DNA of 64,000 nucleotides from Psammoneis japonica (lineage: Eukaryota): positions 434,001 to 498,000 of the forward strand of contig QPGO01000039.1 of the NCBI GenBank assembly GCA_008632985.1, in the 5' to 3' direction. The translations under genes were made by a program, and so were the position numbers. Below, piece by piece: positions 1-42,225 of the stretch. Numbering within the stretch: position 1 is the stretch's first letter; each line of letters opens with the position of its first letter. The notes beneath the pieces are model-generated. The model ran no database searches, was not told where the DNA came from, and was given only the letters and a program-made list of their open reading frames with translations.

Positions 1-647
1 ACATCAACATCGTTAGTATTCCAGTTTTCAGGATTTGATACGATGGGCTGAATCAACGGAGAGTGCGCTTTCACCGCCACTTCTTTTTGACCCGGTTCCT
101 CGCTTTCCATTCCTGAAGTTTCTGATTCTGATCGTGAAGAGCTGACAGTGTCAGCCGAGAAGACTGGCATTGGCATGTTTTGATTTCCCATAGCGACGCG
201 TTCTTCATCTGAACCACATTTGCCCATAGACGTGATACTCAAAGGATTCCTTTCCAAGTTCGATTGTCCACTTCGAGAGCCATCCCGTAGAGATTGCTTA
301 ATTTTTCCCAGAGCACTGCTGCTGTCCATTTCTTGCCAGACATTGGCACAATCGCCATCATCATTCTCAACAAACCCGTTCTCCTTTGCTTCTTTCTCCG
401 TTAACATCTGCAGAAACCTTCCCGGTGGATCTAATGCACGTATAGAATCGATAATTTTGTATGAGACAACATTCTTGGTCTCTCGACTGGTCGTTGAGCA
501 ATACTCTTTTCTGAAGAACTGGCAAATATCACGAAACTGCTTCGAGCCACTGTGATCTCGACATGGGATACCGCGACCGAAAAGCACATCATTCTTATTC
601 GGCTCTCGAATGAACCTGGGTTGCGTCCCTTCGCCTTCTTCGGACAT
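1..647 (-). CDS. DUF6824-domain protein (diatom-expanded family), 5' part; runs off window start
   Basis: Manual translation from ATG at 647: MSEEGEGTQPRFIREPNKNDVLFGRGIPCRDHSGSKQFR...PPGRFLQ...WQEMDSSSALGKIKQSLRDG, matching the DVLxGRG / PPGRFL / W.E...K..Q.LRD pattern. Not in the ORF track, presumably because it lacks a stop inside the window. Confidence 0.8.
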   Translation of the reverse strand, partial: MSEEGEGTQPRFIREPNKNDVLFGRGIPCRDHSGSKQFRDICQFFRKEYCSTTSRETKNVVSYKIIDSIRALDPPGRFLQMLTEKEAKENGFVENDDGDCANVWQEMDSSSALGKIKQSLRDGSRSGQSNLERNPLSITSMGKCGSDEERVAMGNQNMPMPVFSADTVSSSRSESETSGMESEEPGQKEVAVKAHSPLIQPIVSNPENWNTNDVD

Positions 648-2132
648 CACGCTTTTAGGTACTAGTATGGCTTTGGAGGGGAATGTGGAGCGTCTGCGTC
701 GTATCTCGCATCTTCTGAGCAAGGTACAGATCTTCGTGCAAACGCGTCGCGTCGTTTTTAGAAAAAGGAAGTGCTGGTTGCTGGTGCGTGGTGCTGAACG
801 TTTCGCTATTTTCCGACTTTACTTTTTTGTTCGTTCGTGAAAAAAGTTTATACTCTACGTACTAAAAGATCGCTTCTCTACTGGACTTTATCATACAGTA
901 CGTACAGTACAGTGGGGCCCTATCTAGATTAGAGAGGACAAAATTTCACGCTGAATCGAATGGGCCACTCTGATCTTCTGAAAATTGAGTCTTGGGAGTA
1001 TGTATCCTTTTGAGCAGGTCAATTATTTTCCCGCCAAAATACTTAATTAATTTAATTCAGCCGTTAAGTCTTGTAACAGCAGGTGCGTCGACCGACGAAA
1101 CCTCCAGACAACAATGTTGCAGGTGCAAACTGGTGGATGGCGTCACCTTCTTTGCTGCACCGCAGCTGGGAAGCTGTCGCGAAACGGACAGCAGCTGGCT
1201 CTCCACCTGGCTGCTCAAGAGAGCAGCTGGTCTGGAGCAGAGAGTGGACAAGCTCTGCAGTGGATGACCTGCAGCACTTCGCGTTGTGCAGCCATCCCAA
1301 GCGGGCTGTCACCGAGGGATTGGTGCAGGAAACACTGGGTTTTCCTGACGCATTGTCTTCAAACGTCGTTGCAACAATGTTGAAGGGCACCAGACAATGG
1401 TGCTGGTGGAGTCACATTTTTTGAGGTTTTTTAGCTGAGTCTGACCCACTTGCACGGATTGACAGCAAGCACACATGTCAAAGTGTCGCAAGGCAATGTG
1501 GTCAGAGTGCCCAGGTCGATGCCGACTGGCGCTGTCACTTGACACTTCAGGGGTGCACACAAGATGCCCACCAAGCTCCAGAGCAGATGGGTTGAGGCAA
1601 GCTGTTTTGTGCTCATGACAAAACAGGCCTGCACAGCCAACAAAGATTTGAGGCTTCTTGATGCCCAAGAAGTTGGGCAGCGCGCTGAGCACAAAACATC
1701 TGTGACACCAACAATCCAGGTGTCGCACTAGCCGTCAAGATTTCTTGAAATAAAACCCAACATTTTCTCCCTTTAATCCAAGATCGTGCTGATTTGACAA
1801 GTCAGCTTTTCTGAAACATTCAACAACAAACATCTGTGTTCCTCAGCTCAACTGTTTGCCCCCCCATCCGACAAGCCTTGTGTGTGTGTTTGGTTCTATT
1901 TTAATTTCTGGATTGTGCATTAATTGGCTTTCTGGATCAAAATCGTCGCCTGCATCCATCAATCTAGATTCTAATTGTTTTCTCAATTTTCTCTCCCTGC
2001 CCATTCCATCCTTCCTTCCCGTCCATCCGCACGTTGCATCTCTGTGTTTCTGCCCTCACTGTGTCCCCAAGTGATTGTTGCTGCACCCACTGTTTCCTTT
2101 TGATTCTCTTCTCAACTCCTTCGTCTGTGTAC

Positions 2133-5100
2133 ATGGCCATGTCGTCTGATGGTCTTGTTTGTCCATGGTGCAAACGAACCGGTTTCTTTTCCGAACGTGG
2201 CCTCAGCAGGCACATCGTAACTGACTGCCTCCGTTCCGCCGTTTCCACCAAGTCTTTCAGTTGTCCTCGTTGCAGACAACGTGGATTTGACTCTGAAAAC
2301 AATGTGCAGTGTCACCCATCTCGGCACTGCACCGCAGCATCTGGTCTCCCTCCCCCATTGACACAGTTGTGCCATGCAACCCAACAGTCTTCTTCATCCG
2401 GCGGAACATCTCTTTCCTCTCATCCTCTGGATTCTGCCTCCGTCGGCTCCCTTGGATCCAACACCAACAAACCCAAATGTCCCCATTGCCGTGTTCCCTT
2501 TTCAAACATTGCCCTTCATCCACAGAAGTGCTTGCCCTGCTGTGAAAAGGAGGAAATGTCCCTTTGCCTGCATGCCGCACCTTCCACTGCCACCCACGCA
2601 CTTCCCCCTCCAGACGACGACCATGATGAATCACTGGACGACCATGATGATCCTGCTGGGTTTGGTTTCTCCGACAACGAACCCCCCAACCCCTCCCCGA
2701 AGTCCTTTGGAATCCAGCTCCATCTCCTCCCACACCAACGGACAATTCTTCTCCAGCTTGTCCTCCCTCTGCCGGAAGTGGACTACGCCCACCCTCCGTC
2801 AGATGCTCTGGTCGATTGCGTTCAGCCGCCAATGCTGCTGCCGCTGGTGCAGCCTCCCAAAATGTCCGCCGATTTGTTTTGTTTGCAGATGATGGTGTGT
2901 CTGCCCTTGGAGAGGACAGTCCTGTGGATGTTCCTGAGTTCATTGGAGCCGACCGTCGCGATGGCAGTTGTGGCCCCCCCTCAATTTCCCATCCGACAGA
3001 AGATCCTGTTTCCTCCCTTGATCAACACAACCCTCTTGGCCCGCTGCGTGACATCGCACCCAATGAGGATTTTGATGTGCCTCCAGTCCACTCACCCAGC
3101 ATTGCACCCATGGTGCGTTTGCTGCATTTGTGTCGTTGGTCAGGTGTTGCAATTGACTTTGTCGACAAAGCAATGAGAATTTTGCATGAAGAGCATGCAG
3201 AAAAAAGACTGGATTTGTCAAAGCCACCCATCACTGCCGCCGTGGCGATGAAGCAACTCCTGGGGTTATTTCCCAATGTTCCTCTCCCCCACACTGCTGC
3301 TGTGATGCTAGAATGTAACAATCCAACACAGCAACAGAAGGATGGACCCAAATGTCGTCGCTCCCCACCTTTCCCGGTTTGCAGTTTCACCGAGACCTTG
3401 CAGGATCTCTTCACCGAGCCAGTGTTCCGTGATCTTTCCAAGTTGCAGGTTAATCCAAATGATGTCTGGTCACCTTGTGTGCCACCCCCCACCGACGGCG
3501 ATTTGGAACCCAGTGCCAGCCCGGCTGACGGTTTTGAGATGTCGTTCCCGGGTTGTCCTGGTGACTGGCGATTGTCCACTCAAAGTCAAGACATGGGTGA
3601 TGGCGAGTGGCAACAACGTCACACCAATGCCAAGGAAACGGCATCAGATTTTCACGCTCACCTTGTCAATTGCTCGGACAAGACCAGAGTCAATGCGGTC
3701 AATCCTCATGGGATGGAGCCTGTGATGTGCTCACTTGCCATGATTCAAGAGGATGCACGCCGTGACTGCCGTTGTTGGCGTCCACTCGGATTCACACCCA
3801 ATTTGGACAGGAAAGACAAGAAAGACAAGCTTGGGCACCTTGTTGTTGCCAACTGTCACCGCATTCTCAAGGAGGTCCTCCGTGGTCTGCTTCATTGCCA
3901 GGTGAATCCACCCATTGTTCATGCAACAATGGGCACTCAATGCCGCTGTGTCAGAGCTGTGACACATTGCAACTCCCTGTTGGGGGACATCCTCAATCAA
4001 GAATGCATTTGTGGAAGAGTCATGGGCCAAAGCAAGACCAAGAGGTTGTCTCACAACTGCCATGTGCCCTCCCACCGTTCTGAAGACCCCCTTCATGTCT
4101 GCCAATTTTTTAACCAAGCTTTCATAGAGTTGCTCACTGCAGCTGCATTGGGTCCGGATCCAGAGGATGACAACAGCCATTGGCACCAGCATGTTGAAAG
4201 CGTTTCCCGGAAACATCGTACAATGACATCAAAAAAAGAGGCTGAGACTGAGCTGGCTTCATCCCTCATTCGCCGAATGACTGCATGCTCCAAAATTTTG
4301 AGAAAAGTGTTTGGACAGCACGCAGTGGACAATGCTTGCTTTCCACTTAACATGGGCAACAACCCACGTGGTGCATTTGGCATGACCGTTGCTGACACAA
4401 TGCATGTGTTGGAGGCGGGCATTGTCCCTCAAATGATGGAGGCAATCATCGGAGAGATGTCTGCCAAACAGAAAGAGGAATGCGACCGCATTGCATCTGA
4501 GTCATTCTGCACATCCCATTGTCGTCCAGGTCACAGACATGACTGCCCGTGAGTTAGAGTTAACAGGGGACTTTCCACGATAGATCGTCTGGACAGGCAG
4601 GAACAAACAATGCTTCATGCCTCCATTTGTGCGCACAAACACAAAACATCACGTCCAGTGAAATGACAACAGTGCCTTCAGGACACTCGTTGGACAGCAT
4701 CTCCTCGAGTTGGTTCTGTGTCGCGTTGTTGTCAAAAAGCATTCACCCATTGCAGTTGTTGAAGAAAATCTTTAAGTTGTTCAGATGGCACAACTGATGC
4801 ACAGCATCGTCTTCAGAGAGGAAGTCCTGATTGATCAGGGTCGGAAAGCGACTGGCATTGTTGTGCCACATGGCATTGCACCACTGTGAGCCAAGATCAT
4901 GACGGGGACGGTGGAACTCGATGCTGCAGGCATTGCAGGCAGGAACAAGCAGACGACAGGCAATCGCAAAACCGCCAACACCACCACCAAAGTCGAGGAA
5001 ATTAAAATGGCTTCAAATTTGTGCCGCAAAGAGAGCGGGGTTACAAACAACCTCGGTGGAGAAGGCAAAGCTTGCCGCACCACCGTGTGATTCCACACCA

Positions 5101-5590
5101 CCACCAGCAAAACGACCAATTTGATCATCAATTGGCGGCATGTGATTGTGGCAGAGGGAACACGCGTTCCCATGACGGGAACGACTCACAACAACCATGT
5201 CTCATTGACAACAACACACTTCAGTGGACATTAAAGTGGATTGGAAAATTTGGGCAACAGAGAGAGCAATTGGACAAATGTGGCATCGGGGAAGCAGAGG
5301 GATGACCTGTTAAGACAGGCATGACAAATGGGAGGTTTGACACAACTCAACACACCAAATGAAGCAGATGTTGCATCAACAAGGAAGCGCAATGCATGCA
5401 TTGACACAAGGAGACACAACACATTGTTTGGCATTGATCCAAATGACATGGCAATCTTCATTGGTGCACTGGATTGGCCAACAAAGGTGCACAATTCAAA
5501 ACAGTGAAACGTTGATAGAAATGCAAACATGGGGTTGGGAATGAGCACTCAAAAATGATGCAAAGACCTGTTTGAATCGAGAGAGGACAC
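2133..5590 (+). mobile_element. Decayed Plavaka/CACTA-like transposase gene with N-terminal zinc fingers
   Basis: CPWC..GLSRH, CPRC, CPHC finger-like motifs. Core HLVNCSDKT...GMEPVMCSL...RCWRPLGFTPNL and TVADTMHVLEAGI resemble Plavaka-type YxDKT / EP / WRPLGYIP / DxMH motifs with Tyr->Cys/His. Frameshifts and stops are present; 3' end approximate. Confidence 0.65.
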
Positions 5591-5789
5591 GCGAGCAACG
5601 ACAAAACTGAGAAAATCACATGCAAAAGTGCGTTCTTTTTGCAACTTGCCTTTCACAAAGTGACAGGAAAGGATGGAAGTTCCAAACAAGAGGAAGCCAT
5701 GGGGAAGGCAAAAAAAAAATGGAGGATGCGGTTCTCACAGGAGTGACGGAGGGAAGAAGTGTAACTTCCAGCGGCAAGTGAGATTGAGA

Positions 5790-6970
5790 AAGGACATGAC
5801 AAAGAATTGCTGATGAACTAACACAATTGTTGGATTGATCTGTGTGGTGTCACATGAAGTCACCATGAGTCCTGCGGTGGTGGCCTTGTTGCATGCACAA
5901 AGAAACGAACATGGGGAATTGAACAGATTCCAGCATGCAGGTGGCGATTCAAGTTCGGTGGTGACTCCCACAGAGGGATGTCTTGTGTTGGATCGTGCAC
6001 CGGCGGTGGGCAAGAAATTGACAGCATCGATGTTGACCAAGGTTGTCAATGAGAGTGTTTGGCCATGTCGCAAGTTCACAATCTTCGATCATGAACTCAC
6101 CATGGGAGGAGATTGCATGAAATTGGTTCTGCAGGAGTCAAGGAGCATGGCGTCTTCACCGGAGAAGTTCTGGGAAGAATGCAAAGAGGAGTTCAGGACC
6201 AAACTCAACCGAAAGAGGAACAATGTGCAGGACAACATTGGGAGGAGAATGACAGGCAAGCAGATGTGTGCGTGCCGGTGATTGTGTTGGAGGCGATTGT
6301 CCAGCGGGATGAGTGTCTCTTCCTTTGCCATTGTCTGTGCAGTTGCTGCTTTAGAGGGATCGCCAGTGGCTTGCAAAGACTTGACAAAGGGAAGAAATGA
6401 CAAGGACACATGCGCGTGGTTCTTGGAAACTGTGGTGCCGACGGTGGTGGGACAAGCACAGTTTGGCAGAAGCACAACCGACATGCTTCAGGAATGGCTT
6501 TCGGTTTCGTCGGAGGCGTTTGCTCTGCTGGTGTGCTTGAACTGCTGCAACAAGGTGAAGGACATGGCAGAGAAATTGGAAAAGGAAGAAAATGTTGCAA
6601 GGAGAAGAAAGCCAACTGTGAAAGATGCTCTGCTCCTGCAAAGTGCACAGCGCAGGCAGCGGGGGAATCGGCAAAGAGGAGCCAAGGATGGAGCAAGGAG
6701 GGGATCAACAAGTGCAATGATCCATGTCAGTGGGTGGTGAAAGACAGAGAGAACAACCAGGGATTCGGTGCATGGTTCAAGGAGAGAAGGCGAGAGAAGA
6801 CAAACTTGTCTCAGGAGGAAAACAAGAAACGCAAAAGAGAGGAAAAAAGAAAGGAGAGAGAGGAAGGATGGGTGGCGCCAATGGGAGAGGACCCACCATT
6901 GCAGGTGGTGGCTGCAGGCAATGGAGCAGCAGCAAATGCCACAATGGCCACCAACCAAACTGGTGTGTAA
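5790..6970 (+). pseudogene. Decayed accessory gene of the Plavaka/CACTA-like element
   Basis: Fragments FWEECKEEFRTKLNRKRNNV, SVSSEAFALLVCLN, GWSKEGINKCND resemble the EAF...N / GWS.EG...YN accessory ORFs of such elements; same strand as the transposase. Confidence 0.5.
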
Positions 6971-7599
6971 ACTTAATTTGAAACAAACAATAAAATCTGG
7001 ACAAGTGAAAATTAAAAAAAACATTCTGCGATGCGGTTTGGATGCAACAACGTGTGGCAATTGGGAATTTGGATTTGAAAACGGCATGGCAAAGAGACAA
7101 AATGTAGGACGAGTTGGCAGAAAAGGAGGGTGGATTACAAGCAGCAACATTTGTGTTAAAAGAACGAGAAACCCCAAATGTCAATTGGGGTGCAGGTCTG
7201 CATTGTGTGAAAGGAATGACCACACTTAAAAGTGAGAAGCGATTTGGGCTTTAGAAGCTTATAAACTCACACAGTTCTCATGTTGTGTTTGAGGAGAGAA
7301 TTGGCTTGTAAGTCGACAACAATCTGGCATTAAAGTCAAGAAACACCCAGATTGTGGCAGACGGTCAGACCCAGATTATTGGCATCCCAGATGAAGGATC
7401 TCCACTCCCCAGACATTTGCAAGGCCACATCTGAAAATGCTGGTGGGCTTTTCTGAAAGCAGCTCCAGCTGAAGGGAGAGTTGTCTGTTGTGGCACACTG
7501 TGCCTGCAAAGAGCAAGAGTTGCCAAGGTGTGCACACCTGCCACAACCATCTGTCTTGGGCGTGTGATGTTGACTGTTGACAAGTGCAGCAAGACAGTG

Positions 7600-8600
7600 G
7601 AAGCTCAAGGCAGCTCTGGCTAAAGAGCACTGGGGTGTGACACAAAGAATGAGTGCATGCACAGACATTGCAGGAAAACAAGTTCAAGAAAAAGAAAAGA
7701 AAAGAGGAGTTGCTGGAGGCCGAGTCCTCGGCAGCACAGCAGAAATCATCCAATGGCAGCAGTGCTGATGATGGCAATGCTCCTGACAATGGCGCCACAC
7801 CTGCCAATGACTTGACTCTGCTGCTGTTGGCTCCTTCTGGGAAGACACAACAGTGCAGAACCTGCTCAATGCAGGTGATGGAGAAGGTGCAAAAAAAGCA
7901 ACCAAGAAACAAATGGATGTGAGTTGACTGCTGGATTTGCTTTTCATGGTGGATGGAAAAAGAAGTGATCAAAGGAGGCAATCCTGATGACCTTTGCATG
8001 TCCAACATTGCTCATGTGATTTGATTGTGATGCCAGCATTTTGCGATTGTGCTCAACTGTGCATTGAAGAGGCTGCCAAAAAGGAGTGCTGCATGGCTTC
8101 ACTGCTCTGTCAGCAGTGCACAATTGATGACCTCAGCAACACCTGTGGCAAGAAGCACATCCATGGATGAAGTGTAAACTTGTTGGGTTCATGACAGCAA
8201 ACCTTTCTTGTCTTTCAACCAAGGTTGCCACAGACCACTTTTGTGTTTTGTGATGCGCCTGTGCCAGAACTCTGTTGCGGAGGGAGAGTGACAACCATTG
8301 CAAGAGTGGGGAAGATGCCATTGAGTTGGAATGATGGCAGCTCTTGAATCAGTGTGTGGATTGCTGCTGACCAGCAATCAGGACCAACAGTGCATTCTTT
8401 CTTCCAATGCAGTTTCCAACTGGGCAAATCCATTTGGCTTCAGGTGTGGACCAAACAAAAAGATGTGTTGCACTGACAATCATGAATGTCCTGACAATGT
8501 GAGCTGTTGGAATGTGATGGTCCATCAACACTTGATGAAACAAGAATGAATCCTGTGTTGGGTGCAACTTCCAAAAGCAAATGCCATGGCTGGACCTGGT
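7600..8600 (+). mobile_element. Relic of a DDE transposase (IS630/Tc1-like 'YxDGHE..DV' type), N-terminal part
   Basis: NWANPFGFRCGPNKKMCCTDNHECPDNVSCW reads as W...GF.Y...KK.YY.D.HE..D.V.YR after reverting TA/CG changes. Confidence 0.45.
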
Positions 8601-8879
8601 TGAAGCTGAAGCTCTCCCAGCACTTTTGTGCCTTGGCTTCATGGCTGCAACCTCTGCATGTTTTTCTGTGCAAGCTCTGGTGCAGATGTGACCTTTTTCC
8701 AACAGTGTGAAGATGGTTCCTGCTGCCTGCCTGTTCTGAACATTTTTTCCATCCTCATGCCTTTGTTTCATTGTCATGAGCAAGCTCACGTGGTGGAAGC
8801 AAAACAACTGGCATCGAGCCCTTTTGGCTTGTTTGCTTGTCATTCTTCTTGGTGTCTTTTCTTCTCACGCGCAAAGTTT

Positions 8880-9345
8880 CTGCACAAATTTCAGCACAAA
8901 TTTTGTGTGTTCTGCAAGTCATTTCAGATGGATGACTTGCCAAACTGTCAATGGCTCTCTGTCCATGCCTCTCAAGTGTCAACAACCCCCCTTCTGCCTG
9001 TTGTCAATTTGAGTTCCCCCTGCTTTACATGGCAAACAAGCTTCCATTGTTGCTGCTCTCAGAAGTTTGACTTTGACACCTGACTGCTCAGTGCACTTTG
9101 GCCTTTCTTCCATCTGCTGACAATTCCACACAAGTTTCAGCACATTTTCCACATGTCTCAAAGGTCATTTTGGATGATTGACTTGCCAAATGGTCAACTG
9201 CTCTCTGCACATGCCTCTCAGGCATCAATGGCTCCCTTTCTGCTCTTTGTCTGCTCAACTTCTCTGCTTCATGTGGCAAACGATCCCCCATCATTGCTGC
9301 TCCCTGAAGTCTGAATTTGAGACCAGCTCAGTGTGAGTTGGTGTT
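8880..9345 (-). repeat. Two diverged ~245-bp tandem units, possibly decayed HMG-box-like coding repeats
   Basis: gtcattt..gatg..tgacttgccaaa..gtcaa..gctctctg..catgcctctca occurs near 8918 and 9164. The minus-strand translation REPLMPER...KMTFETCGK...ELSADGRK is weakly HMG-like. Confidence 0.4.
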
Positions 9346-12300
9346 TGCCTCATTTCCTCCCTTTTCTCCAGCCAAAACTTTTCCAGACTGCCTGTTTCAC
9401 CTTTGCAGCCAGATCTGATTCCAAGAAGAAAGCTCAATTGCAGCATCAAGTGCTTTGGTTGCAATGTCTCATTTTGCTGGTCCTGTTTTTGCCACTGCCA
9501 GCTGTTTCCGGTGGGCACCACAGACTTGTGGTGTCAAGCTTGTCCATCTGTTGTGCATCCCTGCTGCACCATGTGATGTGCTGGGGGTGTGGGTTGGCTT
9601 GTTGTGCTGGAGTTGCAGGGTGGAAGTGTGGCAGCACTTTAAAATGAATTTTGGGTTTGGTTTGTTTTTGTTTTTGAAGCTCTCCCAGCAAAAACAGGGC
9701 ATGAACACCATGTCAATGGAGAAGACTTTGTTCAGCATTGTGCCAATGCTGTCATTGACTGAACATCCAAGCCTTGCACACAAGCTGTCTACTGCCTGCT
9801 GTGACAGAGTGGGTTGAGCTTTGCAGAAATGCCACCCATTCTGTGTTTGCCCAAACTTGCTGCTCAAAACATGACATGTTTGAGTGATTGCTCACATTTG
9901 CCCAAGTTTTGGCAGATTTCATTGGACCATGACACAACTGTCAAATGCAAAAAGGGATGCACTGCTTGGACTGTTGGTGTTGGGTGTTGTGTTCTCACAT
10001 GCTTTGCCGCTGGCAACATGCAGCAACAAGATGCATTGCATCCAAGCTCTTTTTTTTAATGTTGGTTTTGATTGTGCCAGCAGAAAAAAGGAGGGGACTT
10101 GAAAGTGACTGTGCAACAGCTGGCCTGATGGTCCAGGAGGTGGCTGCTGCAGGAGCAAAGGGTGGGAACACATTGCAGCTGCAGGAGGGTGACAATGTGA
10201 CGCCGAGTGAGTGAAGCCAAGCTGAGCACTGCAGCTGGGCTTTGAGCCCAAAACCCTGCCAGAGAGAGACCAGCCAGAGCTCTGCCAGCTCCAGGTGCTC
10301 CTCCTCCCAGTCTGGTTTGGCTGCTCAAGCTGTGATGTGCTGACCCAAAGGCTGTGTTTGGGCTGTGTGGTGGGTGGGAGAGAAGAGAAGCTTGTCAGCT
10401 GGACTGCTTGCCTCAGACCCTGCACCATGAGTGAGCTCTGGAGAAAAGAATGAGAGACATTGCAGTGCTGCTGAGATGTTGAGTCACCTCCTCAGGGTGC
10501 ACAACAACTCTTGGGTGCTCCAATGTTGCTCATGGCTTCTTTGCTCTTCAACTGCACAAATGCACAAATGATGCCATGTGTTGAAAGCAGAAAGCCAATG
10601 TGCTGAAGTTGCAACCACCAACTCAGAAAATTGATGCAGAGCAAGCTCATTTGTGCATTTGTTTTCTGCACCAAAGCAATGGTGCCAAAGGCAAAGCAGT
10701 GGCAAATCCTTGTTTGCTGTTGACATTTCTTCATTGCTCAGAATTTAAAATCTGGATGACCACCAAACATTTGGCTGTGTCTTTGTGTCAAAGTGGAGGC
10801 AGTGCTTGACAATTTGCACCGTCATTCAGCCAGCTTCTTGCTCTGACTTGAAGTTGAACAGGCACTTGATGATTTGCACTGTTCACATGGCATGTTCTGG
10901 CTCTGTGTCATTCAATGAGATGGGTGATGGGCTTGTCATCAACCAGCCACCAGAGCATGAAATTTTTGCCAATTGGAGGGTTTCTAATGTAAAAACTGGA
11001 CAAACAAATGATGAACAACAAACATTTTCAGTCAAGTCACTCACAAAAAGTGATTGTCTTTGAGTGTCTGTCACACGGCAGATTGTCAAACAGTGTGGGA
11101 CACCACACACAATGACAGTGCTGATGTGGGCAGTCATCCTTCAAGTGATTGTGCCATGTGTGTGGGGCATGAATTGCGCCACGCGCCACAAGGTCATGCC
11201 ACACATGGCACATTTGTTGCACACACAAAGGGGCAATTTCCAGAGTCATCACACACATGCCCAGCTTTAGACTGCTGTGATGCAGCAGCATGTGCCATGT
11301 CCAGAGACAACAGATCTTGCCAGCAACAAGGGCAGTGAACACAGAAATTGTAAAGGTGCTCCAAGCAAAAAGAAGTGGCACCATCAGCTGTTGCTTGTTT
11401 CCCATCTCTCTGTTGTCTTTTCTTCTTTTTTGCAGTGCAGTGGCTGTGACCCCTCCCCACCTCTTGTTCAGAAGTTTGCCTTTTGTCACAAGCCCATTTC
11501 ATCCACTTCCTTTCTGCTGCCATGTCAGGCACAATGGTCAAAGCATTTTGCTTTTCAACTTTTGCACAAAGTGCCTTGAGTTGGCAATGCAAGAGAAGCT
11601 GCCCCCAAGCTCTGGCAGCTGGGTTTGGCTCAGCTGTTGCTTGGTGCCTCACCTGGCCAAGGTTGTGCAGAGTTGATTTGCTTTTCTTTGCATGGCTTCT
11701 TGACTCCATTCATGTCACCCTGACAAAAACAAGCTTGCATTTTCTCACATTGCTTCTGCTGCTGCCCACCTTGTGCTGGCACATGCCGGGGGGCATTTCT
11801 GGCCACATCGTCAGATGCAGAGCCCAAAACTTGCTCTCTGTTCACCTTTTCATTTTGCCATTGCTCCATCTGCTTGCTGCTCCAGTGCACAGAGTCGCTT
11901 TCTGCTGCTGCTGCTGCTGCTCTTGCCACTCTTGGTGTTTCTGCAAGGCATTGTGCTGGGAGCTCTGCACCAAAATTGCACAAAGAAAATTTTCTAGCTC
12001 CACAGCAAGGTTGTGGAGCATGCTTGCCCTCATCATTTGTGACAGAAGCAGCACAGGGCATTGGAGAGACATCTTTGGCAAGTTCCAGTGCTCTTCCATG
12101 CTTCTTGGAAATTGCAGCAAGTGTGTTGAGAGACAGTTTTTTGAGAGGCACCAGCTCTCAACAACAAAATTGGATGACACCCCAAAGCAGTGTTCAAAGC
12201 GCTTTGTGTGGGGTGCTGCTTGGGGCCATGGACAACCTTCTCAGCAGCTGGCCAGCTGGGATGGTGGTGAGCTCCTGCTGGGCTGCACTGCAATGCATCT

Positions 12301-13989
12301 CAACTGGCTGCTTGCTTTTGCCCCCCACAGCAATTTCACAATTTTCATTTTTGGCACTTTGTTCATCCCTTCCACCTCCTGTTTTTTCAAGTTACAGCAC
12401 ACAGGGCTCTCTGCGAGGAGAGCTCCAGTGCTCAGCACCACCCTGGCTTTTTGCTCTGCCACCTGCAGCCATCAGCTCTGTGGCTGCTGGACATCTGCCT
12501 GCTTCTGCACAAACTCCTTGTCATCTGTGCATCATGCTTTGCTTCACACAAAATTGTTCCTTGTCCTTGAGTGCAGGCTTTGGCAACAGGTGCTTGTGAA
12601 ATGATCAGCTCACACACCACATTAAAATCTCAGTTGCTTTTGCATGCTGACTTTTGCTTTGCTTCAGCTGAAGCCAGCCAAAACCTGCTGGCCACACCCA
12701 GCCAAAAAATGCCTGTTGCACCCCTTGTTTTGCACCCAAAAGGCCAACAAACAACAAACATGCCCTGTTTGTGCAGAGCCAGTGCATTGACAAACACTGC
12801 ATTAGAGGCAGGCACCATGTCAAGCACTGAAGCTGCACACAACATCCCATGGGGAGCAAAATGAGAATTTTGGGGCACAAGTTGCCATGGCAGTGTGTGG
12901 TGTGTGGCAGTTTTTGACAACTTCTCTTGACTTCATGAGTCTTAACCCCAGAGAATGAGGGTGCCACTCCATTGTTGACCAACTGTGAAATTCACCAAAA
13001 CAAGCTGTGGTGACTCCAGAGAGGTGACTCAACTTCGACCAAGCTTCCATTGGAGTGACTTGGGCAAGTGTGTTGCACCAAGCAGCTGGACAAAACAAAA
13101 GCCAACAAAAGCATTGCTTTTCACACTGCACAAGACAATCACAGACAAGGTGGAAAAGAAAACCTTTTCAGCAGCAGCAAAAAAACATGGAAGAACAGAT
13201 TTCAGCCACTTGACACACACACCATTTCTGACTGGATTTCATGGACAAATTCCAGAGTTGCAACTTTGTCCCAATCCCAAAACAGCACCAACAAAAAAAG
13301 TGCAACCCTCTCCAGCTTTAAAAGCTGGCATCATTTCAATGTTTTGAACATGGTTGGAGTGAACAATTTGCAAGAAAGCAACTCAGCACTTTGACCCTGA
13401 TCTTTTTTTCTTTTGAAAGGTGCAACAGCATCAAGGCTGCAACTGACACTGGCACTGACTTCTTCTCCTGCTTGGAACTCCAGTGTCAGAAAGAAGAAGT
13501 GTGTGTCCATCACATTCTTTTTTGCAGTTTGGAAGCTGTGCCTTGTTCTGTCTCACAAGCACTTTGTGACCAAATCAAATTGAGTGGGAATGTTCTGTTC
13601 ATGCTGAAACCACAGCCCAAACTTGACAGAGCTGGAGCAGCAGTGTTTTGAGCAGTGAAAACAAAAAAAACCTTTTGAACTGCAGATCTCTCAACAAATT
13701 TGTTGCCATTGTGCAACATGTCACATTGGCGGCCACAAGCTGTGAGTGACCACCATGTGGCACTGGCAAGGTTCTTTGCATTGAGAGTGTGCACACCCAA
13801 CTTGTGACTCTGCATGCACTTGCTGTGGCTGGCAATTGGCAATGGGGTTGGGGGGCAACAGCAGCAACAAGTTCTTGCCAACAGAGGCAGAAGCCCGCTC
13901 TGCACACTGTTGGCAAGATCAAGTGGGTTGACCTCTCACTCATTTTTTGATTTGCTGTGTTGGCAATGGCATCAAAAGTGCTGGTGATG

Positions 13990-15330
13990 AGCACCCCATG
14001 ATGGGTGCAAAAAAGTCCATGCTGTGTGTTGGTGGCAAGGGCCTGAGGCACAAACTTGTCTGTGCCCCCCTCCCCCAGCATGGGTGCATTGGAGCCAAAA
14101 AACAAAGGCAATGAGTGTCCAGCAGAAGATCAAGGGAACACCTGCATCATGTTGGGCATGTCTTGGGACATGGGTCTGTGCTCCATTTTGGCATCTCAGC
14201 AACTGGCGGCATGCCCAGCAGTGGCAAAAGGATCACAGTGCATTGTGCTGACAAGAGGTCCCAAAGTCAGCAACAGCCTCAAAAACCAATGACAAACAAT
14301 GTCCAACTCTTGCAAATGGTGACCACAAAATGCTCAAATGGGGGTGTGCAACATTTGCTCAATGTGCCGCAATTGACACAAGCCAGCAACAACAGAAGAA
14401 GGCACAAAAAATGAAAAGCAACAGAGAGACACAAACTTTTGGTGGTGACAAACTCCCAACAAGCCAGTTTGCCAATGTGTCTTGTGCATGTTAAAGTGGC
14501 TCACACTGCATGGACTGGCACAGAGAAGAGCCTGTTTGATGCACGCCGCCACACCTTTGCAAAAACATCTCCCAGCCCATCTCTTTCTGCTCTTCTCTCC
14601 ACAGCACACCTTCCCGAATTTCCAGTTTAAGAAAATCCAACAAGTTGTTTTTGTGGTGGACATTTTTGTGAGAGAGCATTTTCTGCTGCACCAAGTCAGG
14701 AGCACACATGCACAACAACAGCAACAGCATGAAAAAAGCACAGTTGACACAAGTGCCCAATGATGGAAGCCAAGGTCCACAGTGCTGTGTTGGCAAGGGC
14801 CTGAGGCACAAACTTGTGTGTCTGGCCCTGGCACAGCATGGGTGTGCTGGCACAATGACACAAAAAAAGCCAAGGATGAGTGTCCAGAAGAAGCTCAAAC
14901 AAACAAAAATGTCTGCATCATGTTGCTGGGGGTGTCTTGAGGAACAAAAATCTGCTCACTTTTGGCAGGCACAGCAATGAGCACCCCCAGCAGCAGCAAA
15001 GGTCCACAGCACACTGCGCAAGGCCCTGATGGGATGAACTTGCGCACAGAGGTTTGGCACCGTGACATCAGCTGGTCAGCAGCAACACACTTTTAAAATT
15101 CAAAATGGCAACAAATGTCCCAGCTCTTGCAAAAAACAAGGTTTGCAAATTTGCTCAATGTGCTGCGCCACATTCTTTGATGAGGAACCAGCAAAAAGGT
15201 GCGTCAAAAAGCAACAACAGGTGCAAACTTCTGGTGGCGCGGCAAAGAAGAAATTGTGCACGTGCCAAAGAGTGGCTCATGGCGAGGGGGTGACATCTCT
15301 GCTCCTCCACACACCTTCCCGAATTCCCAG
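13990..15330 (+). repeat. Two diverged copies of a decayed unit (starts ~760 bp apart)
   Basis: tggcaagggcctgaggcacaaacttgt at ~14033 and ~14791; atgagtgtccag at ~14111 and ~14876; cacaccttcccgaatt at ~14605 and ~15310. Confidence 0.7.
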
Positions 15331-15563
15331 GATGCTTGACGTTTGCTTGAGTCGTCGTGTGTGTGGCGCCTTGGAAACTCGCAGCGCGGGCAGACAGACG
15401 TAAACGCACAGCCAAACAGACACGCCAACAAAGCCGATGCACGACAGCCACCAGCCGCACGTTTCAACAATACCTCTGCAACAACAACAAACCCGTCTGT
15501 TGCTACGGTGTTGCTTGAAACAAACAGTTGAGTTTGTAACTTCACTATACTACTACAACAAAC

Positions 15564-18001
15564 ATGACGGAACAAGAAGAAGGTCTTTCCAAGAATGAGC
15601 AAAAGAAGCGTGCGAAAAAGGCAGCAAAAGCAGCCGCCAAGGCTGACAAAAAACAAGCAAATGCCGAGTCGGCTCCGGCTGCTGCTAGCAAAACCACCAC
15701 TACCCAACAAGCACCTCCTATGTGATGTACAATGTATCCAACGATTGTGACGCGTCTCTCAAAGCCGTTTGGTCTTGTCTGGTGTTTGGAGATGTTTCCA
15801 AACTCAAAACAGCCTCTTCCAAGAGTAAGGAGGAGGATGTAGTACACGGTCCACGTTTGACACTGGGCGATGCCATGGTGATGGGTGGCAATGGTATGGC
15901 CAAGGCGTTTCTTCCTCCAGAAAATTAGAAGTAGACGAATGGTGTGAATGGGAACGAACCCAATTACGAAAATCGTCTCCCCCAAAAAGGCACTTGAGCA
16001 TTTATCGCATACCTTGCAATCCAACACTACTTGGTAGGACACGCTCTGACGGTGGCGGATATTTGTGTCTTGGTAACGTTGCATTCCATGGATGATTCAG
16101 TACTACCACAAGCCGTTCAAGACTACATCAAGACGCACAGCAAGGGATATGAATTGGCAAAGGAACATGTTGAAAAACTTGTGGAGCAGCAGCAATCCAG
16201 TAGTACTATTTGATATCAACAATCCCAACGTGACCGTGGTTGTCACGCAGTCTTTCAAAATGTTTTGGAGAACTTTTGGACAAGATTTGTTGAAATGCAT
16301 TCAAAATACGAATTTTGTCGTTCGTGCCACAAGTCCCAAATTTGGTGATTTTCAATGCAGTGCCGCCATGGCACTCTTTGCTGCTCTCAAGAAGAGTGGT
16401 TCTGTGGAATACAAGTCACCCCACGATGTGGCCCATATCATTGTCACGGCCTTGTCTAGCGGCGATACTACGAGCATTCTTCAAGACTTGTCGGTACAAG
16501 GTCCCGGCTTTGTCATGTGCCGTGTTTCCTCCCAATTTCTAGAGTCTCACGTGAATACTCTCTTGAAAACGGGTACCCTCCCCAAACCCCACGTGGAATC
16601 CGAAATTTGTTTGGTGGACTTTTCCTCTCCCAACATTGCCAAGGAAATGCATGTGGGTCATTTACGTTCGACCATTATCGGTGAAGCCGTGTGTCGTATA
16701 TTGGAATTTGTCGGTCATGACGTGAAACGTGTCAATCATGTCGGTGATTGGGGTACACAATTTGGCATGTTGATTGAATTCCTCAAACAAGAATATCCGA
16801 TTTTCATACGACCCAACCAACATTACGATTTGACTCAGTTTTACAAATCGGCCAAGGAACGGTTTGATGAAAATGCGGATTTTAAAAAGGCATCCCAAAT
16901 CAATGTCGTCAAGCTCCAATCGGGCGATGCGGAATGTATGGAATTGTGGCAATTGCTTTGCAACGTATCACGACTTGAATTTGAAAAGGTATACAAACGT
17001 CTGGATATTACCGTGGAGGAATGTGGTGAATCCTTTTACAATGATTTGATCCCACCCGTGATTGAAGAGTTTGAAAAGGCTGGTTTGGTTTCCGTGGAAG
17101 AGGGTGGTGCCAAGTGTGTGTTTGTGGATGGATTCAAGATTCCACTCATGCTTCAAAAGAGTGATGGTGGATATGGATATGATTCGACCGACATGGCGGC
17201 CTTGTCACATCGATTGCGGACACTCCAAGCCAAACGCATTATTTGCATTACCGACTTTTCGCAAGGCGATCATTTCAAAATGTGTTTTGCGGCAGCCGAA
17301 CAAATTGGATGGAAAACGCCACAGCATGAATTACAGCATATTGGTTTTGGTACCGTCCAAGGACAAGATGGGAAACGTTTCAAGACACGATCGGGTGATA
17401 CCGTTCGTCTTGTTGATTTGTTGGATGAGGCGGTCGATCGGATGGAAACGAGTTTGAAGGAACGCATTGCCGAGGGACGGGCCAATATTTCCTGGACGAA
17501 GTTCATGACGTTGCCGAAGCGATTGGGTACGGTGCCGTCAAGTACTTTGATTTGCGTCGTAACCCCACCACCAATTACAAGTTTTCGTACGATCAAATGC
17601 TTGACACCAAGGGTAATACGGCTGTCTATCTCTTGTATGCTCATGCCCGATTGCAATCCATCATGGCCAAGGCAGAAACGGATTATGGAATTAAAATGGA
17701 AGAATTGTTAGCGTCGGATGATGAATCGAGGATTGTGTTGGGACACGCGTCGGAACGGAATTTAGCGTTTCATTTGCAACTCTTTGCCGACACCATGCAA
17801 ACAACCCTGGAGGACTTGTATCCCTATCATGTATGTGAGTATCTCTACAATACAGCCATTGCAGCATCGGAATTTGTGACGCAATGCAAAGTGTTGGGTA
17901 GTCCCGAAATGAAGAGTCGATTGTTGCTTTGTCATGCCACCACGTTGGCCATGCGTGAATGCTTTCAACTCTTGGGTATTCGTCCCGTCATGCGAATTTA
18001 G
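15564..18001 (+). CDS. RARS: Cytosolic arginyl-tRNA synthetase with N-terminal Lys-rich and GST-C-like extension (several apparent frameshifts)
   Basis: VDFSSPNIAKEMHVGHLRSTIIG (HIGH motif), NHVGDWGTQFGMLI, KSDGGYGYDSTD, FKTRSG, anticodon domain GNTAVYLLYAHARL, C-terminus LLGIRPVMRI. Spread over several frames. Confidence 0.95.
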
Positions 18002-18051
18002 AGGAGTAGTAGTAGGAGGAGAGTTGTGTGTGTGAGTATTATTAGTATATA

Positions 18052-18418
18052 TTTTAGATGTGAGTTTTATCAACGACCTTGTTATTGTGTACTCTAGAAT
18101 AAAGAGATGGTGCGCCTTATCAATTTTGATTGTGGTACGTGCCACTATCAATCACTCGCATCCAGTTGCTGCACTCTCGGATTGTGCCTTTCCAGACGTT
18201 CCACCAAGTACGATTTGCGATGTTGTCGACCGGTTTTAGATGTGAATTTTATCAACGACCTTGTTATTGTGTACTCTAGAAAAAAGAGACAACAAGACTT
18301 TTGAATTTTGATTGTGGTGTGTGGAATTATCAATCACTCGCCTCCAGTTGCTGCACTATCGGATTTGTGCCTTTTCTAGACGTTCCACCAAGTACGATTT
18401 GCGACATTGTCGACCAGA
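18052..18418. repeat. Tandem duplication, 2 x ~182 bp, intergenic
   Basis: ttttagatgtga.ttttatcaacgaccttgttattgtgtactctagaa starts at 18052 and 18234; agacgttccaccaagtacgatttgcga occurs in both copies. Confidence 0.9.
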
Positions 18419-18420
18419 CT

Positions 18421-20244: not shown

Positions 20245-20430
20245 TGTAATCCAGAGTTACTGCTCTTATGAAAGAGGCTTGCATCGAGTGTCTTTGGAGT
20301 CGTTGCCTCTGGGGATCTTCATCATGGGCATGCTGTTCGGTGTGTGTTGTGTGTTGTGTGTTTGGTGATATCGGAGTCCCGCTCGTGAATGAAATGCGAG
20401 CGTTGACCGATGCCGCGTCCGTCCATCAAA

Positions 20431-25396: not shown

Positions 25397-25968
25397 TGTA
25401 ATCCAACTTTTTGACTGGGATTCAATTGAATGCATGTCCTACTTTGCCCGTTGCTCCCTCGGTCGCTTCACTGTGCTCGCAAAACTCGCAATCGCAAAAT
25501 TGCCCTCTCGCAAAGGTCAAAGCGCGCGGCGGCACAACGCGCGACGCTGAGGCTTTTGCACCGTTGAAGTCTGAAATTGAACCCAAGTTGCGTATGGAAG
25601 GGAGGTCTGACTCTTGGGCCTCTAGTCACCAGCAAGCTCTTTGAGTGCCTGCCTTGTCGCAGCCTTTTTATAAAGGTACCATAGCGTGAATTTGTCATTT
25701 GGTTTCGTTTGTGGGAAAGGAGAGGGACAACAACAATTGATGAGCACATACCAAGTAAGATCAGACCCAGCGCTAGCTAGAGTAGGGGCTACTTCTTTGC
25801 AAAACGTGGAGGTAGGCCTATACTCTACCGTAGTTGCTCTAGGGTTCGAAGTAATGATAAGGACAGACTAGACTACATTTACACGTCAAGCTAAACGAGA
25901 CCTTGCGCGCACCCAATTTACAGCAACCCTCTCACAAAAGAGAGAGTCACACTTCTTGACAAGGAAGC

Positions 25969-27117: not shown

Positions 27118-27699
27118 GGTTGCAATATCAATTCAATCAAGAGAGAAAGTGTGAGATTTTTGTCGTCCACGGGAAAAATGATGGGATTTTTTGTGTCACG
27201 GTGAAAGCGTGCGTGGATCGCCAATGCGTTGCACAAATTTTCAATCGCCAAAAAATATTTGGAACCATAAATAAGCATTTAAAATTTGGCTATTAAAGAA
27301 GGATAAGTAGCTGAATATGATAAAAATTCAAAACGCAGATCGTCATGAATAGATTGGCGATATCAGAGATCCGTTGATGTAAAGGTATGAAGAAAGGACC
27401 ATAAAAGTATAGCATTCAAATGATATCCGGTAAATAATATTATATACAAATTTCGCTGGATCGCTTCCGTTCGGCGGCCTCGACGGTTAAATCCGGCGAA
27501 ACGATTCAAAAGCACATTCAATTTCTTCGAAACGAAAGATGGCATTGGATTCAAAAAAAGGCGAGACGTGAAAAGAGTATGGAATGTGTGTGTATGTAGA
27601 ATTATACGTGTAAATTGTACTGTGCTTTTGAAAAGATCTTGCTTGTGCGTGCGTCTGTCTATCAGCGGATCTTGCGTCTTTCCTTCTATCCGCGTGTCG

Positions 27700-29100: not shown

Positions 29101-29368
29101 AGCGACGCCATGAATTGACAAATCATGACATTTCGTTCTGGGCAAATTACAAAAGGAATGCGTTGACCATAAAACAAGTTGTCGTAGTTACAGAGTGTTG
29201 GGCGAGTTCTAGGCAAATTACGAAAGAACACGTTGGGCTTGACAAATTAGCACAGTTTCAGGGTATTGGGCAAGCATTCATTGCGTCAAGCTGGACTGAC
29301 AAACACATTGGTTACCACACAGACTCGGCCCGGGCTACAATCCACAAATGAGAACTGTGGAAAAGCTG

Positions 29369-41629: not shown

Positions 41630-41710
41630 ATGGGTTCACACCATTCATGTCCCCGTGTTCTAATTTCCCAGCCACGGGGATTCATGACACGTTACGTCGT
41701 GATGCGACCA

Positions 41711-42225
41711 TCTACATCCAAGAGATCTATACATCCCTGGAAACGGGGATTCATGAGACTTCGTTTACATTCTTGTACCTTGGAATCTTTCTGTCAGTTT
41801 AAGGATTCATCAAGGTTTACATATTCGGCTCCTTCGCTTCTACATCCAAGAAATCTATATCTCTCTGGAAACGGGGATTCATGAGACTTCGTTTACATTC
41901 TTGTACCTTGGAATCTTTCTGTCAGTTTAAGGATTCATCAAGGTTTACATATTCGGCTCCTTCGCTTCTACATCCAAGAAATCTATATCTCTCTGGAAAC
42001 GGGGATTCATGAGACTTCATTTACATTCTTGTACCTTGGAATCTTTCTGTCAGTTTAAGGATTCATCAAGGTTTACATATTCGGCTCCTTCGCTTCTACA
42101 TCCAAGAAATCTATATCTCTCTGGAAACGGGGATTCATGAGACTTCATTTGCATTCTTGTACCTTGGAATCTTTCTGTCAGTTTAAGGATTCATCAAGGT
42201 TTACACATTCGGCTCTTTCGCTTCT
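41711..42225. repeat. Tandem array, 4 x 128 bp
   Basis: ggaaacggggattcatgag recurs at 41739, 41867, 41995 and 42123. Confidence 0.95.

Follow-up and report, generated by a model that had tools for sequence, protein, structure and literature searches.

Likely flank-dependent TpA hypermutation with slower CpG transition in diatom repeats and pseudogenes

In the TadA/ADAT family, the natural target adenine follows U in the anticodon loops of tRNAs, and the natural site of TadA is U-A-C-G. The AID/APOBEC enzymes, which hypermutate retroelements, deaminate cytosine in single-stranded nucleic acid and leave strand-biased G>A changes. In RIP of ascomycete fungi, C is described as changing to T mainly at CpA, which raises TpA, and a duplicated sequence is hit in each of its two copies (PMC2621366). 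Hypermutation at TpA only has already been described, in one 2026 preprint on the chlorarachniophyte Bigelowiella natans, in which integrated viral DNA underwent A:T to G:C changes restricted to this dinucleotide (Mettrop et al., bioRxiv 10.64898/2026.01.13.699255, 2026). According to that preprint, TpA>TpG/CpA hypermutation arises de novo in mutation-accumulation lines, certain of which show very high rates, and the TpA-depleted genes are enriched in DDE and reverse-transcriptase domains (10.64898/2026.01.13.699255). An ADAT2-like adenine deaminase is put forward there as the agent, as a proposal only, and activity of TadA/ADAT-type enzymes on DNA is stated to have been reported for few cases only (10.64898/2026.01.13.699255). 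The words CpG, context, flanking, trinucleotide and diatom do not occur in the main text of the preprint (10.64898/2026.01.13.699255).

Here we describe TpA depletion in the diatom Psammoneis japonica; all counts come from one 64-kb stretch of its DNA (the window). The window contains four discrete depleted blocks, the edges of which are sharp within a few hundred nt. In block 1 (positions 1075–15400, or 1041–15548 by segmentation), which contains the interval 1380–15100 of a preliminary description of this DNA, TA is nearly absent. Between 2001 and 15000 the observed/expected ratios per kb were 0.01–0.17 for TA, 0.03–0.65 for CG and 1.4–2.2 for TG/CA, compared with 0.42–0.86 for TA in ordinary window sequence. 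CpG was half gone at about 1400–7300 and almost wholly gone at 8000–15000. At the left edge of the block a TA at 1074 is followed by the next at 1432, and at the right edge a TA at 15094 is followed by the next at 15401. Block 2 (27688–29100) is short and depleted of both TA and CG, with 7 TA, 5 of them YTAR, at 27800–29100. Block 3 (42700–59055), which includes a 41-N gap at 44038–44078, is likewise depleted of both, and 34 of the 47 TA at 45001–59000 are YTAR. Block 4 (61990–64000) is truncated where the window stops; it has little TA (observed/expected 0.13–0.20) and retains most of its CpG (0.62–0.84), with 10.0 TA and 42.8 CG per kb at 62200–64000. A frame in this block matches a TSP_3 repeat (Pfam) and holds 2 Tyr in 337 residues. 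In block 4, and in block edges of about 300 nt, TA is lost and CpG retained. Over all blocks TG and CA are present in similar numbers (3743 and 3630).

A multi-copy repeat family occupies 1335–7337 of block 1, where the summed contig word depth is 1860–5031 compared with about 50–100 in flanking single-copy sequence. Within it, a frame on the plus strand (2651–4549) is a remnant of a Plavaka-type DNA transposase (Pfam PF18759, E = 1.5e-06; 28.1 bits, cut-off 26.3) with 527 homologues (HMMER). Its 633 open codons include 29 Cys, 29 His and no Tyr, and at the six columns in which at least 40% of 53 homologues carry Tyr it has C, C, C, H, Q and Q. In block 3, an LTR-like direct repeat has two plus-strand arms (47211–47585 and 51187–51568) with 77.5% identity. 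Among the 40 rows listed (1334 more exist), differences from other copies or alleles lay mostly at CpG sites, and in the low-copy part of the block, again among the rows listed, 5 of 8 differences were at CpG and 1 of 8 at TA. There is therefore no sign here of a TA process that is active now.

Two mutated copies of host genes could be aligned with intact relatives in the same window. An intact lectin-like gene with its flanks (39475–42299, plus strand; ORF 40237–41229, with L-type lectin matches in Pfam that are weak and below cut-off) has normal TA and CG content and served as the ancestral proxy for a hypermutated duplicate at 52682–55439 (plus strand). Of 67 reliably aligned TA of the intact copy, 24 had become TG and 24 CA, 5 were kept and 14 showed another change; 82 CG gave 35 CA and 32 TG, and 4 were kept. 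A hypermutated fragment of the RAP/FAST gene family (13224–13640) was aligned with its intact relative at 22787–23204 (BLAST identity 67%). None of the 8 aligned TA was kept (4 to CA, 3 to TG), nor was any of 17 CG (9 to CA, 6 to TG).

The TA that remain in the blocks are skewed to YTAR, as had been noticed by eye and as the counts now bear out. YTAR accounts for 89 of the 143 TA in the four blocks together (32,924 nt; RTAR 32, YTAY 15, RTAY 7), compared with 179 of 1168 in the ordinary, non-block sequence of the window (28,503 nt; RTAY 384; Fisher p = 1e-31). The interval 1380–15100 contributes 66 TA (YTAR 39, RTAR 15, YTAY 10, RTAY 2; p = 7e-15) and the skew recurs in the other three blocks (YTAR 50/77, p = 8e-21). 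TTAA by itself makes up 40 of the 143. TAY, which had been called scarce among survivors, is indeed so: TAY half-sites number 61 of 286 in the blocks compared with 1373 of 2336 outside. The examples quoted in the preliminary description were located (ttttagc, TA at 1432; cactagc, 1729; tctagattctaa, 1965 and 1972; gttagagttaac, 4555 and 4561). GATTAG and TTCTAAG are present in both arms of the LTR-like repeat (47276/51251 and 47288/51263, respectively), as had been claimed, although these arms belong to another block, outside the interval to which they had been assigned.

The flank bias persisted when NTAN counts were normalised. The flank composition of the blocks themselves leads to an expectation of 44.6 YTAR, compared with the 89 observed, and of 27.9 RTAY (chi2 72.7, p = 1e-15). 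Relative to non-coding, non-block TA, of which 71 of 395 are YTAR, the odds ratio was 7.5 (p = 6e-22), and with repeated 14-mers taken out YTAR still accounted for 84 of 138. Window genes are an imperfect proxy for the ancestral context of most block sequence and contain TTAA at only 0.33 of expectation; absolute survival values (about 0.8 for TTAA) are therefore rough.

When the ten symmetric NTAN classes were fitted by a multiplicative model with one independent rate per strand, the model described the survivors (chi2 5.7, 6 df, p = 0.46) and a model of uniform survival was rejected (chi2 374). The fitted per-strand rates were 2.65 for TAT, 1.91 for TAC, 0.89 for TAG and 0.09 for TAA, and A at +2, two bases 3' of the target A, was protective too. 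The YTAR excess among survivors thus stands, but the underlying rule is a gradient in which the +2 base also counts and not a clean Y/R split.

The direction of change bears on the same preference. In the alignments of intact and mutated gene copies, TAY gave 20 TG and 9 CA, and TAR gave 4 TG and 15 CA (Fisher p = 0.003). Among the unequal-flank classes of the two gene pairs, 25 of 32 sites had changed in the predicted direction (p = 0.001), and the fitted rates predicted whether the outcome was TG or CA (permutation p = 0.001). Further, A>G changes outside TA were more frequent before a pyrimidine (17/195) than otherwise (8/258; p = 0.012). The three lines of evidence, from the survivor model, the direction of change and non-TA A>G, are mutually independent. 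The TAY-preferring mutator suggested in the preliminary description is accordingly supported in a graded form, in which TAA almost escapes, TAG takes a middle position and A at +2 protects. Some observations count against the model. Direct survival in the lectin pair was no more than suggestive (TAR kept at 4/25, TAY at 1/42, p = 0.06), and the 5' base alone had no marginal effect there (12 CA and 11 TG after R, 12 CA and 13 TG after Y). The YTAR class of the lectin pair changed to CA eight times and to TG once, although near balance is expected, and the TGT share of TG flanks was 0.257 both in the blocks and outside, showing no enrichment. The TGC share was enriched (0.305 in the blocks, 0.243 outside).

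We consider it probable that a flank-dependent TpA mutator, together with a slower CpG transition, shaped the four blocks. The blocks would consist of diatom repeats and pseudogenes changed nearly to saturation, at the DNA level and on both strands equally, by rapid A:T to G:C transitions at TpA, which yield TG or CA, and by C:G to T:A transitions at CpG, which would proceed more slowly and yield TG or CA as well. The per-strand rate at TpA would be set by what follows the target A on its 3' side (T > C > G >> A) and would be lowered further by A at +2. Under this order a TA would survive only if it reads as TAR on both strands, that is, as YTAR, and the best survivors would be above all TTAA, TTAG/CTAA and TYTARA. 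Spared flanks such as TTAA and TTAG would thus offer a sequence fingerprint of a putative DNA-editing defence. TA specificity, strand symmetry, the graded flank effect, the prediction of direction and regional confinement were all observed here. The agent may be a polynucleotide adenine deaminase, converting A to inosine that is read as G, guided to silenced chromatin, and the CpG loss would stem from the usual decay of methylcytosine in that silenced DNA. In 160 of the 163 block ORFs and 31 of the 53 non-block ORFs of the window, comparison with Pfam revealed no domain of a deaminase, a Y-family polymerase or an adenine methylase.

The same regional TpA mutator might instead attack thymine, which would, for instance, be oxidised or otherwise modified at R-T-A and mispair with G, under the rule 5' A > G > C >> T. 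T>C on one strand is A>G on the other, so all counts fit this reading equally well, and in dinoflagellate DNA modified thymine is known to be concentrated at TpA. Nevertheless, we regard it as unlikely: no thymine-modifying enzyme was indicated by Pfam among the window ORFs scanned, and the sole published case is discussed as adenine deamination, itself a proposal only (10.64898/2026.01.13.699255).

Much less probable is that TA loss was blind to its flanks and that the survivors are new TA, derived from CA/TG or from doubly hit CpG, or reflect an odd ancestral composition, in which case YTAR would be uninformative. Some block TA are indeed new, because one TA of the mutated lectin copy stands opposite CG (TCGA to TTAA) and one in the RAP/FAST pair opposite TG, and for most block DNA the original composition can be approached through an imperfect proxy only. 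However, the other five of the six TA that the mutated lectin copy contains have a TA opposite them in its intact relative, and surviving TA are mostly retained ancestral TA. Y..R flanks surround 23% of block TG and of block CA, the potential sources of new TA, compared with 62% of block TA. The YTAR share climbs with falling TA density, from 0.33 at 10.0 TA per kb through 0.55 at 7.1 to 0.68–0.72 at 2.7–5.4, and reaches 5/5 at the lowest density (2.4 per kb). Finally, flanks predict the direction of loss where the ancestor is visible.

Pol eta is prone to A>G errors at WA, TA being the hottest site, and this signature led the preliminary description to name it as a candidate next to TadA-type deaminases. 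We find error-prone repair synthesis of this kind in silenced DNA scarcely credible. At adenines with both neighbours unchanged, A>G had occurred in 40 of 58 cases after T, 12 of 169 after A, 11 of 134 after G and 2 of 150 after C. AA was thus on par with GA and at about a tenth of TA, with no AA to AG excess (AA compared with CA plus GA, p = 0.29).

ADAR-like A to I hyper-editing of element RNA, fixed through reverse transcription and reinsertion, would bring the 5' U-preferring A>G changes typical of RNA adenosine deaminases (10.64898/2026.01.13.699255). Its probability is nonetheless negligible: the products are strand-symmetric, both in the lectin pair and over the blocks, the changes extend to what is left of a DNA transposon and to a segmental duplicate of 2.8 kb, its non-coding flanks included, and 3' G is not favoured, TAG being less mutable than TAC and TAT. 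A sequencing or assembly artefact, such as miscalling of modified bases in heavily methylated DNA, would suit two self-complementary dinucleotides typical of DNA-modification sites, but it can practically be set aside, as public-run contigs match the blocks almost letter for letter (1 letter differs over 1192 nt and 2 over 3370 nt; the window itself may derive from the sample behind this run) and indels and about 20–33% of letters set the mutated copies apart from their intact relatives.

A wider reading of the favoured TpA mutator is doubtful. It would be part of a chromatin-guided DNA-editing defence of diatoms that turns both self-complementary pyrimidine-purine dinucleotides into TG/CA, acting on the adenine of TpA (3' T > C > G >> A) and on the cytosine of CpG (with the greatest loss after a 5' T), by one deaminase system with two activities or by two coupled systems, and that is shared with Rhizaria and therefore old within SAR.

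Compared with known systems, decay of methyl-CpG resembles the change of CG to TG/CA in the same blocks (67/82 in the lectin pair and 15/17 in the RAP/FAST pair), where methylation itself is presumed. It accounts for the CpG half only, and it proceeds more slowly and over a narrower range than the loss of TA. The likeness to AID/APOBEC is that of a deaminase defence with a flank preference read from mutated and spared contexts; in contrast, the diatom change occurs at adenine:thymine pairs and is strand-symmetric. TadA, ADAT2/ADAT3 and TadA base editors share with the diatom process a target A directly after U/T, and the U-A-C-G site may agree in part with the T-A-pyrimidine preference. However, TadA and the ADATs are tRNA enzymes, and in the diatom T at +1 (2.65) exceeds C (1.91), G (0.89) and A (0.09), with A at +1 or +2 strongly disfavoured.

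The process in B. natans is similar in that diatom A>G changes target the A of TpA rather than adenines elsewhere, giving TpG or CpA by strand, with both product types found (24 TG and 24 CA in the lectin pair, 3 TG and 4 CA in the RAP/FAST pair), and in that depletion is confined to discrete foreign or repeat regions. It differs in several respects. The diatom host belongs to a different supergroup branch, its TA observed/expected ratio is 0.01–0.17 compared with the Rho of 0.45 given for a giant-virus region of B. natans, CpG loss accompanies TpA loss, and the targets include duplicated fragments of host genes. Further, the diatom process is known from sequence comparison, and that of B. natans from mutation-accumulation lines (10.64898/2026.01.13.699255).

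RIP is likewise regional, near-saturating and specific for a dinucleotide, and inactivates repeats by transitions that leave a diagnostic skew. In contrast to RIP, the diatom blocks lose TpA and gain CpA/TpG, and the intact lectin copy (39475–42299) was spared, only the one at 52682–55439 being mutated. From the genetic code, RIP is expected to make stop codons. A change at TpA removes TAA and TAG, and only TAA to TGA keeps an in-frame stop; frames therefore stay open, as in the 633 Tyr-less codons at 2651–4549. If TpA/CpG editing does operate in this diatom, it would inactivate by missense only, with all tyrosine codons erased and frames left open, unlike RIP.

A per-kb dinucleotide count showed that TA was nearly gone from four blocks of the window, which a sliding count placed at 1041-15548 (block 1), 27612-29210 (block 2), 42511-59163 (block 3) and 61971-64000 (block 4). 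Within 2001-15000, the observed/expected ratio of TA was 0.01-0.17, compared with 0.42-0.86 in ordinary sequence, and CG was reduced to a ratio of 0.03-0.65 where TA was depleted. TG and CA stood at 1.4-2.2 times expectation where TA was depleted. All sequence counts refer to one 64-kb window.

A preliminary description had proposed that the TA sites surviving in 1380-15100 are biased to the flank class YTAR. This region contained 66 TA (39 YTAR, 15 RTAR, 10 YTAY and 2 RTAY), and the quoted sites were found at the positions reported; the two motifs described as kept in both repeat arms were present, but in the third block. The picture was unchanged in the three blocks beyond 1380-15100, in which YTAR accounted for 50/77. 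Across all blocks there were 143 TA, including 89 YTAR and 7 RTAY, with TTAA contributing 40, whereas the 28.5 kb of ordinary sequence contained 1168 TA, including 179 YTAR and 384 RTAY. The bias held after normalization, as the flank composition of the blocks themselves predicted 44.6 YTAR and 27.9 RTAY (chi2 72.7, p = 1e-15). Because coding sequence avoids TAA and TAG, the non-coding share of ordinary sequence was used as a second reference; here YTAR made up 71/395, and the excess in the blocks corresponded to an odds ratio of 7.5 (p = 6e-22). Further, YTAR still represented 84/138 when repeated 14-mers were removed. The TG and CA of the blocks, which are one transition from a new TA, had Y..R flanks in 23% of cases. 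The YTAR bias of surviving TA is real and strong.

Each TA was then scored as two half-sites, taking on each strand the base 3' of the A (+1). This base was A in 53%, G in 26%, C in 14% and T in 7% of survivors, compared with 20%, 21%, 29% and 30%, respectively, in ordinary sequence. A model that multiplies one survival term per half-site, the two terms being independent, fitted the ten classes of symmetric tetranucleotides (chi2 5.7, 6 df, p = 0.46; uniform survival, chi2 374), with fitted rates of 0.09 for TAA, 0.89 for TAG, 1.91 for TAC and 2.65 for TAT. Retention relative to ordinary sequence was approximately 0.8 for TTAA, 0.43 for CTAA/TTAG, 0.14 for CTAG and 0.009 for ATAC/GTAT, although these absolute values are rough because genes under-represent TTAA (0.33 of expectation); ATAT had 0 survivors versus 0.6 expected. 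The +2 base was A after TAG in 62% of surviving half-sites, compared with a general 25% after G in block sequence (p = 4e-11), and A after TAA in 47% versus 32% (p = 2e-4). Further, the YTAR share climbed with falling TA density across sub-blocks (0.33, 0.55, 0.68-0.72 and 5/5), which is exactly the rise predicted by differential survival. As judged from the survivors, the preference of the putative mutator is quantitative, in the order TAT > TAC > TAG >> TAA, and A at +2 is protective.

Self-comparison of the window revealed a 2.8-kb segmental duplicate, the lectin pair. One copy (39475-42299) comprises a lectin-like gene of ordinary composition and its flanking sequence, and the mutated copy (52682-55439) sits in block 3. 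In this duplication, hypermutation was confined to the copy within the block. Within the mutated copy, there is also a tandem duplication (53376-53613 / 53612-53855). On the 3' side of the lectin-like gene, a 128-nt unit is repeated four times in tandem (41583-42222), the last three units being 96-98% alike and the first 61%; the mutated duplicate has one degenerate copy of this unit (55228-55439).

Over 1682 reliably aligned columns of the lectin pair, the 67 TA of the intact copy corresponded to 24 TG, 24 CA, 5 TA and 14 other dinucleotides, and its 82 CG to 35 CA, 32 TG, 4 CG and 11 others. When both neighbors were unchanged, A>G was found at 40/58 sites after T, 12/169 after A, 11/134 after G and 2/150 after C, and G>A after C at 56/70. 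Therefore, two strand-symmetric transitions converge on TG/CA, and the adenine transition is TpA-specific. In a second pair, comprising a RAP/FAST gene fragment at 13224-13640 (within 1380-15100) and its intact counterpart at 22787-23204, 8 TA gave 4 CA and 3 TG, and 17 CG gave 9 CA and 6 TG, with none of either kept.

If the mutator prefers an A that is followed by a pyrimidine, YTAY is predicted to change to TG and RTAR to CA, with the symmetric classes mixed. TAY sites of the lectin pair changed to TG in 20 cases and to CA in 9, and TAR sites to TG in 4 and to CA in 15 (p = 0.003). The classes with unequal flanks changed in the predicted direction at 19/26 sites of the lectin pair and 6/6 of the second pair, together 25/32 (p = 0.001). 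Further, the rates fitted to the survivors predicted whether individual sites had become TG or CA (permutation p = 0.001), with TG at 1/7 sites with a model value <0.2 and at 9/11 with a value >0.8. Outside TA, A>G was also favored before a pyrimidine (17/195 versus 8/258, p = 0.012). Against a preference for TAY, the YTAR class of the lectin pair gave 8 CA and 1 TG. No marginal effect of the 5' base alone was found in the lectin pair, and retention in this pair was only suggestive (TAR 4/25 versus TAY 1/42, p = 0.06). Among block products, TGC but not TGT was enriched, so that the product evidence is weak and mixed.

Flank-dependent loss requires that retention be dominant among surviving TA, and retention did dominate over new origin: the mutated lectin copy contains 6 TA, of which 5 aligned to TA of the intact copy and 1 to CG (TCGA to TTAA), and one TA in the second pair was derived from TG. 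The central inference of the preliminary description, a mutator preferring TAY, is supported and refined.

These results show A:T to G:C change at TpA that occurs at the DNA level, is strand-symmetric and regionally confined, and proceeds at a rate that depends on the one or two bases that follow the A on its own strand. The adenine may be deaminated by a TadA/ADAT-like enzyme, which would be guided by silencing marks; enzymes of the TadA/ADAT family naturally encounter their target A with a U on its 5' side. Alternatively, but less probably, the base attacked would be the thymine paired to the A, with which the sequence alone is compatible. Pol eta, one of two candidate agents offered by the preliminary description, is disfavored as the TpA mutator, because A>G changes showed no excess at AA (12/169, versus 11/134 at GA). 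RNA editing followed by retrotransposition is likewise disfavored, given that the changes are strand-symmetric and that the kinds of target do not suit it. RIP fails both on the dinucleotide affected and on the spared intact copy.

The loss of TA and that of CpG differed in extent. At their edges, blocks 1 and 2 were free of TA for approximately 100-350 nt past the CpG-poor zone; for example, 1075-1431 had no TA, and 14 CG were present in 1086-1367. Further TA-free edges beyond the CpG-poor zone were seen at 15095-15400 and 27688-27777. TA and CG densities were 10.0 and 42.8 per kb in block 4 (61990-64000) and 2.4 and 25.2 per kb in 42900-45000. These edges and sub-blocks were TA-free or TA-poor at a CpG density near normal. 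Therefore, TA loss was faster or wider than CpG loss, which suggests two processes of unlike speed or reach. CpG loss would represent ordinary methylated-CpG decay in the same silenced DNA. Surviving CG was also flank-biased, with 5' T in 14% versus 32% outside (p = 3e-8; 8001-15000, 27900-29050 and 45001-58950), in agreement with the lectin pair, in which, per strand, TCG was lost most (33/54) and CCG least (6/27).

When the window was compared with contigs of a public run, 1335-7337 proved to be a multi-copy family (contigs over 1-20000), and low-copy block sequence was matched almost exactly; the run may be the source sample of the window. Among the differences listed (40 of 1374 differing places), those in low-copy block 1 (7338-15341) were CpG versus TpG/CpA in 5/8 cases and at TA in 1/8. 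CpG decay may be the process that still generates variation there.

Pfam was searched with 160 of the 163 block ORFs that reach 90 aa, the other three spanning an N gap. The only matches were to TSP_3 (a repeat), to Tmp39 (below threshold) and to Plavaka, the last being the remnant of a transposase at 2651-4549. The Plavaka remnant retains an open frame of 633 codons that contains 0 Tyr. At six Tyr columns (53 homologues, at least 40% Tyr), a test of one element, it has C, C, C, H, Q and Q, and, in keeping with the model, each of the three Cys codons is preceded by a pyrimidine. A TA change creates an in-frame stop solely through TAA to TGA, and both TAA and TAG are removed; therefore, an open frame in TA-mutated DNA does not indicate function. 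As TAA/TAG stops and tyrosine codons are erased, dead elements retain long open frames and enter protein databases as tyrosine-free "proteins".

Four of the 150 Plavaka homologues listed from public data (P0162, P0194, P0209 and P0254) contained 0-0.09% Tyr, with C or H at conserved Tyr columns. Such compositions suggest that the signature of TA loss is also present in other, environmental sequences. A word-indexed protein search yielded no match for the Plavaka frame and matched P0254 to itself alone, and a metagenome scan found no relative of P0194. Two metagenome matches of P0162 (L001 and L002) were rejected as a second hypermutated locus, as their TA was only mildly low (observed/expected ratio 0.23-0.60) and their TA contexts were ordinary.

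A thrombospondin type 3 repeat frame at 62990-64000 (minus strand) contains, among 337 residues, only 2 Tyr, and its GKLHF motif recurs. The frame resembles a gene that was TA-mutated recently and in which CpG is still largely intact. Nested direct and inverted repeats at 43463-44636 adjoin a 41-N assembly gap (44038-44078), and the inverted arms (44079-44332 and 44383-44636) are 96% complementary.

Outside the blocks, a Pfam scan of 31/53 ORFs of at least 110 aa, with shorter overlapping frames left out, detected housekeeping families only. The arginyl-tRNA synthetase of the window was 66-71% identical to the diatom proteins of Fragilariopsis, Pseudo-nitzschia, Fragilaria and Cyclotella. Three FAST_1, DUF1601 and RAP paralogues on the minus strand (18421-20256, 22737-25438 and 29369-31255) are made of 111-nt (37-residue) tandem repeats, and a frame change near 23063-23447 appears to split one of these genes.

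Literature searches, including a term search in PMC2806351, yielded no account of diatom TpA hypermutation and none of a flank preference of the process. TpA-specific hypermutation of silenced DNA has one prior report, a 2026 chlorarachniophyte preprint. According to its main text, two integrated viral regions of Bigelowiella natans mutate approximately 1000 times faster than the remaining genome, with nearly all changes being A>G or T>C at TpA; clusters depleted in TpA and enriched in CpA and TpG contain transposon-like genes, and an ADAT2-like DNA deaminase was proposed (10.64898/2026.01.13.699255). The terms context, flanking, trinucleotide, CpG and diatom are absent from that main text, and the supplementary site list could hold context (10.64898/2026.01.13.699255). 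Both the flank fingerprint and the association of TpA hypermutation with CpG loss appear new. The order TAT > TAC > TAG >> TAA provides a yardstick for in vitro tests of a candidate deaminase or thymine-modifying enzyme, and can also be applied to the published mutation-accumulation sites, which comprise 231 de novo TpA mutations. The window shows in a diatom the TpA signature described for Bigelowiella natans, driven nearly to completion. Diatoms are ecologically dominant and genetically tractable.
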